A stretch of 8,419 bases of DNA from Promethearchaeia archaeon. GTDB taxonomy: Archaea; Asgardarchaeota; Lokiarchaeia; Sigyniarchaeales; SOKP01. This document shows, piece by piece, positions 1-4,542 of this stretch; within the stretch, counting starts at the first letter, position 1, and the number at the start of each line of letters is the position of its first letter. The notes under the pieces are model-generated. The model saw only the letters and a program-made list of their open reading frames with translations. It ran no database searches and was not told where the DNA came from. Both the position numbers and the translations under genes were made by a program. The DNA lies in the NCBI GenBank assembly GCA_046497275.1, contig JAWOFX010000173.1, forward strand, positions 1-8,419, written 5' to 3'.

Positions 1-231
1 TCAGACCCGATAACTATAAATGATAATCCTCTTGAGAAAAATGAAAATAATATTAATCAAAAGTCGAATGTTCGACCGAATCCTCAAGAAACCCCAATGA
101 ATCCATCCAATCAATACAGAGAAAGAAGCTTAAAAGAGATTTATGAAGATTTTTGGGATTTTATCGATAATGATAATGAAATATTTATGGAATTCATAAT
201 AAACGACGAGCGAAGAAAATTTGAATTTTAG
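1..231 (+). CDS. 3' end of a hypothetical protein (5'-truncated by the window edge)
   Basis: Frame +1 is open from base 1 to TAG at 229-231 (76 aa: SDPITINDNPLEKNENNINQ...ERSLKEIYEDFWDFIDNDNEIFMEFIINDERRKFEF*). It is absent from the ORF track and no family was recognised. Confidence 0.6.
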   Translation, partial: SDPITINDNPLEKNENNINQKSNVRPNPQETPMNPSNQYRERSLKEIYEDFWDFIDNDNEIFMEFIINDERRKFEF

Positions 232-494
232 GAAGAACTATTATTTTTAAAATGAGAGCATAGGAAAATCAGCTTATTTGATAAATTCTAAACCAATTAA
301 TTTTTTAATTTTTTCCGCATAATCAATTTTGATTTAATTTCTATTTCTTTTATAATTTAATAATTTGGAGGGGTTTCTGAATTTAGATATTAACCTATTA
401 TAAAAAAATTTAGATCCTTTAGTACAGAGGAAATTAAAGACAGATAAAAAATGATTAAAACTAGAAAGAAAATAATAATTATATACAATATCAA

Positions 495-1364
495 ATGATA
501 GATTTAAAATTAGCTGAAATCATTGGAATTGCTTTAGGAGATGGAAGTATCCCTAGAAATAAATCAAGAATAAGAATCACCTTAAATAAATCCGAAGAAC
601 CCCAATATACTCGAAAAGTATATAAATTATTATTCGATGTTTTAGGAAAAAAACCAACTATATATGAACCAAAAGATGCAAATGCAATCAAATTAACTGT
701 ATCGGGTAAAACAATTGTAGAAAAATTGATTAAAAAGGGACTTCAACCTGGTGATAAAAAAGTTAATCAAGTGAAAGTTCCTGATTGGATAAAAATGAAT
801 AATAATTTTGTTAAGAATTGTCTAAGAGGATTAACAGATACCGACGGATCTATTCATGTACATAAATCATATAAAAGGATTCGTGTTGGTTTTAAGAATG
901 CCTCAAAACCATTAATGAAAGATTTCAAGGAAATGTGCGAAATTCTCAATATTCAAACAGGAAGTATTTTTCCTTCAAAGGGGCAAGATACTTATCAACT
1001 GCATATAGAGAGTAAAAAACAAGTCGTCAAATTTATTAATAAAGTCGAACCAAGAAAATGGGCTTATAGAGCTGAAACAATCGGATTAGTTTTAATTTCA
1101 ATCAAAGAATCTCGAAAATGGAGGAAAGTTAAAACTGAATTATTAAAACAATATCCATATGGAAAAGTCCATTATGATAAAGATTACAAGAATTATATAA
1201 AGTATTTATGTAAAAAAAATTGTTATGATATTAGTAGTGAAGCTATAAAATTAGAACTTCTTTATGCTTTAACCTATAGAGATAATTGCAAGGGAATCTC
1301 TAAGAAAATAATAGAAGAAAATAATCAGTTAGCTAAAACAATTATTAATAAGCTAAAATTTTAA
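495..1364 (+). CDS. Free-standing double-motif LAGLIDADG (DOD) homing-endonuclease-like protein, 289 aa
   Basis: Motif 1 LAEIIGIALGDGSI (aa 6-19) and motif 2 CLRGLTDTDGSI (aa 109-120) each keep the acidic residue before G. The GDKK...VPDWI linker is typical of intein-type DOD endonucleases. There are no intein splicing termini (no N-terminal Cys/Ser, no C-terminal HN). Confidence 0.9.
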   Translation: MIDLKLAEIIGIALGDGSIPRNKSRIRITLNKSEEPQYTRKVYKLLFDVLGKKPTIYEPKDANAIKLTVSGKTIVEKLIKKGLQPGDKKVNQVKVPDWIKMNNNFVKNCLRGLTDTDGSIHVHKSYKRIRVGFKNASKPLMKDFKEMCEILNIQTGSIFPSKGQDTYQLHIESKKQVVKFINKVEPRKWAYRAETIGLVLISIKESRKWRKVKTELLKQYPYGKVHYDKDYKNYIKYLCKKNCYDISSEAIKLELLYALTYRDNCKGISKKIIEENNQLAKTIINKLKF

Positions 1365-1381
1365 TATGCCAAGGGTGGGAT

Positions 1382-1411
1382 TTGTTCCAATTAGAATAAG
1401 TTTCTAATTCA
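1382..1411 (-). other. tRNA-Phe intron 3, T-loop position 58/59, 30 nt
   Basis: TGAATTAGAAACTTATTCTAATTGGAACAA. Perfect central helix GTTC/GAAC, bulges AA|T and AA|A, and an 8-bp internal hairpin AATTAGAA/TTCTAATT. Removal restores T-loop TTCAAAT. Confidence 0.92.
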
Positions 1412-1439
1412 TTGAACCCACGATGCCCAGATCTTCAGT

Positions 1440-1468
1440 TTCACCATATCTCAAGTTTTCGAGACATA
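1440..1468 (-). other. tRNA-Phe intron 2, anticodon stem position 30/31, 29 nt
   Basis: TATGTCTCGAAAACTTGAGATATGGTGAA. Perfect central helix CACC/GGTG, bulges AG|T and AA|A, and a 9-bp internal hairpin ATGTCTCGA/TTGAGATAT with two G-U pairs. Confidence 0.92.
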
Positions 1469-1479
1469 CTGGTGCGTTC

Positions 1480-1509
1480 TTACCCATAATTGGGTAATCC
1501 AAGAGTATT
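1480..1509 (-). other. tRNA-Phe intron 1, D-loop position 19/20, 30 nt
   Basis: AATACTCTTGGATTACCCAATTATGGGTAA. Central helix GCCC/GGGT, bulges GG|A and AA|G, internal ATA/TAT and TTGG/CCAA pairs. Removal restores the archaeal Phe-type D-loop AGCCCGGGA. The outer junction has an A-A mismatch (relaxed BHB). Confidence 0.85.
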
Positions 1510-1750
1510 CCGGGCTACGCCACCTTGGCAACGTTGTTTTATCTTATTTAGTGTATCTTAGATATTCATTTCTTATAAATAAGATATCTTTTAAAATCAA
1601 GAATATGTTATAAATTTTTTTGGTAGATATGATGGTCCTTTGAGCATTAATTTTTAATAAAATTTCAACCTTTTTTATATTCAATTGTGTTCTAAAACTA
1701 ATTATTGGACTCAAATTGTTTATTATATATTAAAAAATAGTATCTTTACA

Positions 1751-4442: not shown

Positions 4443-4542
4443 TGCGCCCGCCGGGATTCGAACCCGGGTCGCTGGCTTGGAAGGCCAGAATACTACCATT
4501 TTACAATGAAAGAAAATCTTTCAATTTCTATACAACGAGCGC
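4443..4542 (-). tRNA. tRNA-Gly: tRNA-Gly(TCC) with one D-loop intron; exons 4542-4527 and 4499-4443
   Basis: Joined exons read GCGCTCG TT GTAT AGAATGGTA GTAT T CTGGC CTTCCAA GCCAG CGAC CCGGG TTCGAAT CCCGG CGGGCGC A (73 nt). Anticodon TCC is at 4481-4479. CCA is not encoded. Confidence 0.93.
4500..4526 (-). other. tRNA-Gly intron, about position 16/17, 27 nt (boundary slightly ambiguous because of A-runs)
   Basis: AATTGAAAGATTTTCTTTCATTGTAAA. Internal hairpin TGAAAGA/TCTTTCA, central helix TATA/TGTA, bulges GA|A and AA|A. Confidence 0.75.

Follow-up and report, generated by a model that had tools for sequence, protein, structure and literature searches.

A probable tRNA-docked homing endonuclease gene beside a three-intron tRNA-Phe gene in an Asgard archaeon

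In phage T4 the Seg and Mob endonucleases spread by intronless homing, in which co-conversion follows the cutting of a neighbouring conserved sequence. Collaborative homing was reportedly described by Zeng, Bonocora and Shub in 2009 for the free-standing F-CphI gene beside the intron-containing psbA gene of cyanophages, and for mobE and I-TevIII in T4. Archaeal rRNA introns of the bulge-helix-bulge (BHB) type can encode a mobility protein, as in the I-DmoI type; the statement in an earlier reading of the DNA analysed here (the sequence-only reading) that archaeal tRNA introns encode no such protein holds, but does not extend to these rRNA introns. We have analysed an 8,419-nt stretch of DNA (the window) from contig JAWOFX010000173.1 of a Promethearchaeia archaeon, in which a free-standing LAGLIDADG gene lies tail to tail with a tRNA-Phe(GAA) gene interrupted by three non-canonical mini-introns. 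We read this open reading frame (ORF 495-1364), with a probability of about 0.72, as a homing element docked at tRNA-Phe and as a member of a family whose clades are each associated with a particular tRNA gene; the cutting that we propose for it we infer. The family is one of Lokiarchaeia-type Asgard archaea, and the clade of ORF 495-1364 is tied to tRNA-Phe(GAA), to which its members are convergent and flush at the 3' end.

The locus resembles F-CphI/psbA and mobE (for the phage T4 comparison see PMC2790892) in that a free-standing endonuclease gene adjoins a gene with an ORF-less intron. The proposed logic is also alike, since the intron-less allele would be cut, the intron-bearing allele would be immune and the two parts would be converted jointly, and a fossil in a sister clade fits this scheme. 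In contrast to the phage systems, the introns are protein-spliced BHB mini-introns of 28-31 nt in tRNA genes rather than self-splicing group I introns. A single gene holds several of them, at sites that vary, the element resides in the chromosome of an archaeon instead of a phage, and cleavage at the intron site is here only proposed. SegB, which lies in the tRNA gene cluster of T4 (PMC13096335), is likewise a free-standing homing endonuclease gene among or beside tRNA genes; it is, however, a phage GIY-YIG enzyme, whereas the genes described here encode LAGLIDADG proteins and reside in the chromosomes of cells, and each tRNA species has a clade of its own. Links between mobile DNA that targets tRNA genes and the interruption of those genes have been suggested before, both in the Randau and Soll hypothesis that interruption by introns or splitting keeps integrating elements out of tRNA genes, as it is cited in PMC4390854, and by Sugahara et al. 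(2012; PMC3293823), in whose account a mobile element creates tRNA introns. Those elements are of the integrase type, whereas here a homing endonuclease gene is concerned and, at a tRNA-Met gene, the replacement event can be read from the DNA.

The translation of ORF 495-1364 (P0001) is free of stops and matches LAGLIDADG_3 (Pfam PF14528) over residues 106-184 with 55.1 bits against a cut-off of 22.5, while its N-terminal half gives weaker matches to LAGLIDADG_2 and LAGLIDADG_3. The two motifs, LGDG at residues 14-17 and DTDGS at residues 115-119, retain the catalytic acidic residues D16 and D117, both of which are invariant in 13 homologues. A LAGLIDADG core (residues 1-185) is followed by an all-helical C-terminal domain (187-288). 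An AlphaFold2 (AF2) model built on the homologue alignment, with a predicted local distance difference test (pLDDT) score of 92.9, was compared with known structures (Foldseek, VIA) and gave Z scores of 16-19 against the TliVMA intein endonuclease, I-Tsp061I, I-DmoI, PI-SceI and PI-PfuI. The model shows the pseudo-dimeric alpha-beta-beta-alpha-beta-beta-alpha fold, with Z 18-19 and a root-mean-square deviation (rmsd) of 2.1-2.8 Å to I-DmoI, I-Tsp061I and the endonuclease domain of TliVMA. The C-terminal domain gave no convincing structural match, just generic helical ones with Z about 5, and a search of PDB chain sequences with the family profile gave no match at E 0.01. The ratio of non-synonymous to synonymous substitution (dN/dS) within the tRNA-Phe clade (PHE clade) is 0.2-0.5, which is purifying selection. 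The ORF probably encodes an active endonuclease. Several members of the clade (P0005-P0009; L002, L003, L005 and L007) carry lysine- and asparagine-rich low-complexity N-terminal extensions of 100-400 aa, which are absent from P0001.

The enzyme is similar to I-DmoI and I-Tsp061I in its archaeal origin, its double-motif single-chain fold (Z about 18) and its two acidic residues. These enzymes, however, are encoded inside the rRNA intron that they mobilise, whereas the P0001 gene lies beyond the discriminator base of the tRNA on the opposite strand, which rules out an intron-encoded ORF of the I-DmoI type, and its product has an additional C-terminal helical domain of 100 residues. There is also a clear likeness to intein-borne endonucleases such as TliVMA, PI-SceI and PI-PfuI: the best structural match is the TliVMA domain (Z 19.1), the best NCBIfam match is an RtcB-type intein, and in the tree the free-standing copies are intermixed with intein-borne ones of the same genomes. 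An intein-borne endonuclease is nevertheless ruled out for ORF 495-1364, as the open frame around it spans 299 aa between stops on both sides and has neither Hint domains nor extein flanks. The gene is single-copy and the sole free-standing LAGLIDADG gene of its genome, in which the three other LAGLIDADG_3 matches belong to inteins, in frames longer than 1000 aa. The description of this gene in the sequence-only reading, as an apparently intact free-standing endonuclease with both catalytic Asp residues that lies in neither an intron nor an intein, is borne out in each respect.

Homologues were sought in 400 genomes of the phylum and in metagenomic contigs. Matches to the endonuclease were found in 57 of the 400 genomes, nearly all in the window's own family, and close homologues (44-61% identity) occur in at least five genera as well as in metagenomes. 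The distribution is nevertheless sporadic, as the gene is absent from all six genomes of the same genus and from about 90% of the family. All ten members of the PHE clade, which has support of 100/99 in the tree, lie tail to tail at the 3' end of tRNA-Phe(GAA); seven are from genomes (the window, G264, G170, G161, G207, G179 and G266) and three from metagenomic contigs (with P0002, P0010 and P0014). The gap ranges from 2 to 96 nt, being 2 nt in the window and in its closest homologue P0002 (L148) and 19-34 nt in several others. Chance adjacency to tRNA-Phe is ruled out by this count. Other clades occupy the gap between tRNA-Thr(GGT) and tRNA-Met(CAT), or lie beside tRNA-Arg(TCG) and tRNA-Arg(GCG), and two are found in tRNA arrays. 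A tRNA gene lies within 2 kb of about 25 of the 38 free-standing family loci, compared with one of ten intein-borne copies in the same genomes and about 5% expected by chance. The enrichment next to tRNA genes that the sequence-only reading had led one to look for is therefore strong. Related LAGLIDADG genes in G173 (L030:19-1183, forward strand) and G161 (L141:1790-4440) lie inside arrays of 6-14 tandem tRNA genes, which look like the tRNA cluster of a virus or mobile element.

The 3' flank of tRNA-Phe is a site at which such genes come and go. In several genera a radical-SAM gene, an AlkD gene, tRNA-Phe and a convergent flanking gene are syntenic, and the endonuclease gene appears as an insertion of about 1.1-1.35 kb between the last two. 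The larger surroundings are different in G161, G170 and G179, and there too the endonuclease gene adjoins tRNA-Phe. The copies at this site are intact in five genomes, frameshifted in G266 and without their N-terminus in G179, and C-terminal remnants are found in G238, G249, G219 and probably G174. For example, G238 and G264 have flanks that are about 90% identical and the same two introns, and G238 has lost 1.28 kb of the gene and keeps the last 44-50 codons of a G264-type copy. This series of intact, frameshifted, truncated and remnant copies is the cycle of gain, decay and loss expected of a homing endonuclease gene. Presence, absence and decay at one site are thus seen at the tRNA-Phe flank, and recent transfer across genera in the sister Thr/Met clade only. 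The DNA between tRNA-Phe and the flanking gene also holds ORFs of about 400 aa in many genomes of genus g12, which proved to be ordinary aminotransferase genes.

A second nuclease family, PDDEXK_5 (Pfam PF11645), which is unrelated to the first, also has a gene tail to tail with tRNA-Phe at this position. This gene is full-length in G242, G145 and G146 (L098:2791-4110 and L031:2648-3532, both on the reverse strand, and L033), starts 23-54 nt from the end of the tRNA, and is present as C-terminal remnants in four more genomes (L062, L063, L045 and L055). In G242 it is inserted into a LAGLIDADG gene, of which 45 codons persist next to the tRNA, with the N-terminal part 2.6 kb distant. This 45-codon remnant beside the PD-(D/E)XK gene accounts for a tblastn match in G242; a C-terminal targeting domain common to the PD-(D/E)XK proteins and those of the LAGLIDADG clade was considered and rejected (BLASTP E > 0.2).

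The sister clade between tRNA-Thr and tRNA-Met provides a record of an arrival. In genera g12 and g13 the two tRNA genes are 7-17 nt apart in most endonuclease-free genomes and 930-960 nt apart where the endonuclease gene is present; other genomes hold remnants of 90-280 nt. In G266 (L126:1685-2822, reverse strand) tRNA-Thr is followed by a 10-nt spacer and a 29-nt 5' fragment of tRNA-Met that lacks the D-loop intron. Then come 8 nt of a tRNA-Thr 3' end, of a foreign type not found in G266, the endonuclease gene, the conserved upstream region and a complete tRNA-Met with a D-loop intron. A 14-nt tRNA-Met fragment occupies the same position beside the endonuclease cassette in G177 (L019:1408-2392, forward strand), and there too the complete tRNA-Met beyond it carries the D-loop intron. 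The L126 breakpoint, inside an intron-less tRNA-Met, is 5 nt away from the site of the D-loop intron. The simplest reading of this scar is that an intron-less tRNA-Met would have been broken at that point, nt 29, or further along, that one end would have invaded a donor bearing both endonuclease gene and intron, that DNA synthesis would have run through the cassette, and that the far end would have been joined without homology. The endonuclease of G266 is 85-88% identical to the g12 copies, whereas between g12 and g13 the radical-SAM enzyme encoded nearby is no more than 77% identical and AlkD 51-61%; the transfer across genera is therefore recent. In the genome to which the window belongs, tRNA-Thr(GGT) and tRNA-Met(CAT) are 185 nt apart rather than about 16 nt (G000:C180:5385-5802, forward strand), and the spacer contains an A-rich stretch resembling the conserved upstream region of the Thr/Met cassette; it may be the remnant of a lost copy.

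Traces of conversion at tRNA-Phe itself are found in G207, which carries the endonuclease gene, when it is compared with endonuclease-free G184. The downstream flanks are about 94% identical (87-100% in windows along them) and the tRNA-Phe region about 87%. The G207 allele (L122) is a mosaic, with exons and a D-loop intron identical to those of the G210 type (L076) and an anticodon-stem intron identical to that of the G184 type (L054). The two genomes differ by a 1351-bp indel that starts no more than 13 nt from the tRNA end and has an imperfect trailer repeat at its bounds; from +2 onwards the trailer sequence is again the resident one. The 2 kb of extra DNA upstream of tRNA-Phe in G207 contains a HAD hydrolase gene and two small ORFs of unknown function, and no hallmark of a mobile element was found in it.

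If the element is a homing gene docked at tRNA-Phe, its enzyme would cut endonuclease-free tRNA-Phe loci, either within the tRNA or at the 3' end of the gene. A chromosome bearing the endonuclease gene would serve as template for repair of the double-strand break, by which that gene would be copied together with adjoining stretches of the tRNA and their introns. After fixation the gene would decay by frameshift, truncation and deletions of its tRNA-distal end, and short C-terminal remnants would stay at the tRNA. Several observations weigh against this interpretation. A search of 17 loci for pieces of tRNA-Phe on the far side of the endonuclease gene gave only chance matches of 13-14 nt. Introns number 2.75 on average at tRNA-Phe loci with the endonuclease gene or a remnant and 2.23 at the others, a weak trend (one-sided p = 0.03, uncorrected for relatedness). 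Proteins of the PHE clade are 46-58% identical between genera and are thus about as diverged as the host AlkD (45-67%), and therefore long vertical descent with many losses would explain the distribution as well as recent homing does. For this clade, long residence with many losses appears as likely as recent spread.

Three other accounts compete for the details. The strictest places the target in the intron-less tRNA-Phe gene, most plausibly in the stretch from D-stem to anticodon stem, so that introns in the D-loop and anticodon stem would give immunity and be converted together with the endonuclease gene. This account, which the sequence-only reading had favoured, we hold tentatively, as possible and short of probable. 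It agrees with the position of a free-standing endonuclease gene next to an intron-containing gene, with the L126 and L019 fossils, and with the tRNA-Met counts: every one of the seven endonuclease-linked tRNA-Met alleles is interrupted by an intron within its first 40 nt (five in the D-loop and two, from genus g5, in the anticodon stem), compared with 14 of 26 pristine alleles, such that alleles lacking one number 0/7 and 12/26 (Fisher p = 0.03, or 0.006 with remnant loci included, the alleles not being phylogenetically independent). Moreover, tRNA-Phe and tRNA-Met have nearly the same anticodon stem (CCAGA/TCTGG), the region to which the fossil breakpoints map, and this may serve as a lead to a related target. 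At tRNA-Phe the evidence is divided. We surveyed 94 complete tRNA-Phe genes of the family, orthologues from about 90 genomes, and found 0-4 introns per gene at recurrent sites, after mature nt 15, 19-21, 29-31, 52-54 and 57-60. All eight intact PHE-clade genes lie by alleles with an intron of class D20 or AC31, but so do 81% of endonuclease-free alleles, and the difference is not significant. None of the endonuclease-linked alleles from genomes has fewer than two introns, compared with 22 of the 78 others that have none or one; in the metagenomic case of P0010, however, an intact gene lies beside a one-intron allele. No intron site is common to all the endonuclease-linked alleles from genomes and metagenomes, and G207 and G179, whose endonucleases are 73% identical, have quite different sets of introns. 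Relatives without the endonuclease gene (G276, G151, G166 and G238) have the same introns as endonuclease-linked alleles; introns 1 and 2 of the window, for instance, are orthologous to introns of G276, of the same genus, and of G151 and G166. Intact family members are also found by intron-less tRNA genes, namely 17 nt from tRNA-Arg(TCG) (L136) and beside tRNA-Thr (L023).

The introns may shield the resident tRNA-Phe allele, as the sister clade suggests, but for the tRNA-Phe locus itself the comparison, which has little statistical power, neither supports nor excludes this. Intron self-immunity finds no clear support at tRNA-Phe, where endonuclease-free relatives share the introns and mini-introns occur throughout the genome, and indirect support in the Thr/Met clade, where both the fossil and the tRNA-Met counts speak for it. 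Of the signs that would have told against the idea, introns shared with relatives lacking the gene were found; the mosaic allele of G207 may nevertheless reflect co-conversion. The surplus of introns expected at linked tRNAs is weakly present in number at tRNA-Phe and absent as a shared position. According to a further account, the recognition site spans the 3' end of tRNA-Phe and its trailer, insertion destroys the site, and the introns are irrelevant passengers. The flush insertion at 2 nt or at 19-34 nt, the G207 indel that begins so close to the tRNA end, the similar placement of the unrelated PDDEXK_5 genes and the coexistence of family members with intron-less tRNAs are all in its favour. 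Trailers are poorly conserved across the family, however, and therefore half of such a site would vary; the fossil breakpoints of the sister clade lie inside tRNA-Met and not at the flush tRNA-Thr junction, and the distance from gene to tRNA is variable. We regard this account as rather unlikely. It is highly improbable that the protein is instead a domesticated or surviving LAGLIDADG protein that is no longer mobile, for instance one that binds DNA in the manner of WhiA or has some function at the tRNA-Phe locus, and is inherited vertically with tRNA-Phe. Purifying selection, divergence like that of host genes in a tree that roughly fits the genera, and a LAGLIDADG core with a C-terminal helical domain reminiscent of WhiA would all suit such a protein. 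WhiA, however, is a LAGLIDADG protein with a C-terminal HTH domain and without the catalytic acidic residues, which P0001 keeps, and a domesticated gene would sit poorly with the sporadic distribution, the frameshifted, truncated and deleted copies, and the recent transfer across genera in the sister clade.

The tRNA-Phe gene escapes the usual searches: ARAGORN and Rfam (E up to 1) found nothing in the unspliced gene, which was therefore spliced by hand. The joined exons, of 20, 11, 28 and 15 nt as given in the sequence-only reading, form a 74-nt tRNA-Phe(GAA) that ARAGORN recognises, and the tail-to-tail arrangement proposed there is confirmed, with the stop codon TAA of the endonuclease gene at 1362-1364 and the discriminator A at 1367 (Table 1). 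The introns are hairpins of BHB type, and when intron 2 is folded locally its 5' splice site falls within a 3-nt bulge beside a hairpin; no group I intron family was found by Rfam. The three introns are members of a BHB mini-intron population that extends across the family and the whole genome. In the 98.9%-complete genome of the window, Rfam finds 26 tRNA genes above threshold, about 15 of which have inserts, and multiple introns probably conceal another 20 or so. Within the window, a tRNA-Trp(CCA) gene (4443-4542, reverse strand; roughly 100 nt) is interrupted just past the acceptor 5' strand, near position 7-9, by about 28-30 nt of inserted sequence, and its Rfam match covers model positions 10-63 only. 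Relatives that lack the endonuclease gene have 80-300 nt between the end of the flanking gene and the 3' end of tRNA-Phe, and compared with those of the same genus (L116, L118 and L119) the AT-rich region upstream of the endonuclease start is part of an insertion of about 1.1 kb. The window is AT-rich Asgard archaeon DNA, with neighbouring genes for S19e, L31e, Rpr2 and Nep1, and the named homologues of its proteins are labelled Promethearchaeota or Thorarchaeota.

Table 1. Features at the tRNA-Phe end of the window (positions in the 8,419-nt stretch)
Feature	Position	Strand	Basis or remark
Conserved flanking gene, 3' end	1..231	+	tblastn synteny
AT-rich region from the preceding gene to the endonuclease start; putative promoter presumed	232..494	+	comparison with L116, L118, L119
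Free-standing double-motif LAGLIDADG homing endonuclease gene (289 aa, P0001)	495..1364	+	translation, Pfam PF14528, AF2 model
2-nt spacer from endonuclease stop codon to tRNA discriminator base, tail to tail	1365..1366		sequence
tRNA-Phe(GAA) gene with three non-canonical mini-introns	1367..1529	-	spliced 74-mer called by ARAGORN
Exon 1 (20 nt): acceptor 5' strand, D-stem 5' strand, part of D-loop	1510..1529	-	manual splicing, ARAGORN
Intron 1 (30 nt), D-loop, class D20	1480..1509	-	orthologous to introns of endonuclease-free G276, G151, G166
Exon 2 (11 nt)	1469..1479	-	manual splicing, ARAGORN
Intron 2 (29 nt), inside anticodon-stem 5' strand, class AC31	1440..1468	-	splicing and family comparison
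Exon 3 (28 nt): anticodon loop to T-loop	1412..1439	-	manual splicing, ARAGORN
Intron 3 (30 nt), T-loop, class T59	1382..1411	-	boundaries can slide 1-3 nt
Exon 4 (15 nt): T-arm end, acceptor 3' strand, discriminator A	1367..1381	-	manual splicing, ARAGORN

These observations bear on the question of how non-canonical tRNA introns arrive in archaeal genomes. A recent preprint on Asgard tRNA introns leaves their route of arrival open and does not mention homing endonucleases, and our literature search found no paper linking homing endonucleases to tRNA genes of Asgard or other archaea. Standard tRNA finders overlook multi-intron tRNA genes such as these and with them the association. Three points are new: the BHB mini-introns are spliced by proteins, the docking sites are tRNA genes, and the host chromosome is that of an Asgard archaeon. 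At least two unrelated families of endonuclease genes use the tRNA genes of Asgard archaea as specific docking sites, and their turnover is rapid. One case at least can be read as the replacement of an intron-less tRNA by an intron-bearing copy in the same event as the arrival of the endonuclease gene, and collaborative homing is a plausible candidate for one way in which tRNA introns spread. It is conceivable, if speculative, that homing endonucleases cutting uninterrupted tRNA genes drive the heavy interruption of Asgard tRNA genes, with intron-bearing alleles being immune and copied together with the endonuclease gene; the three-intron tRNA-Phe would then be a live example. Were this so, it would provide both a DNA-level route for the gain of BHB introns and a selective reason for their retention.

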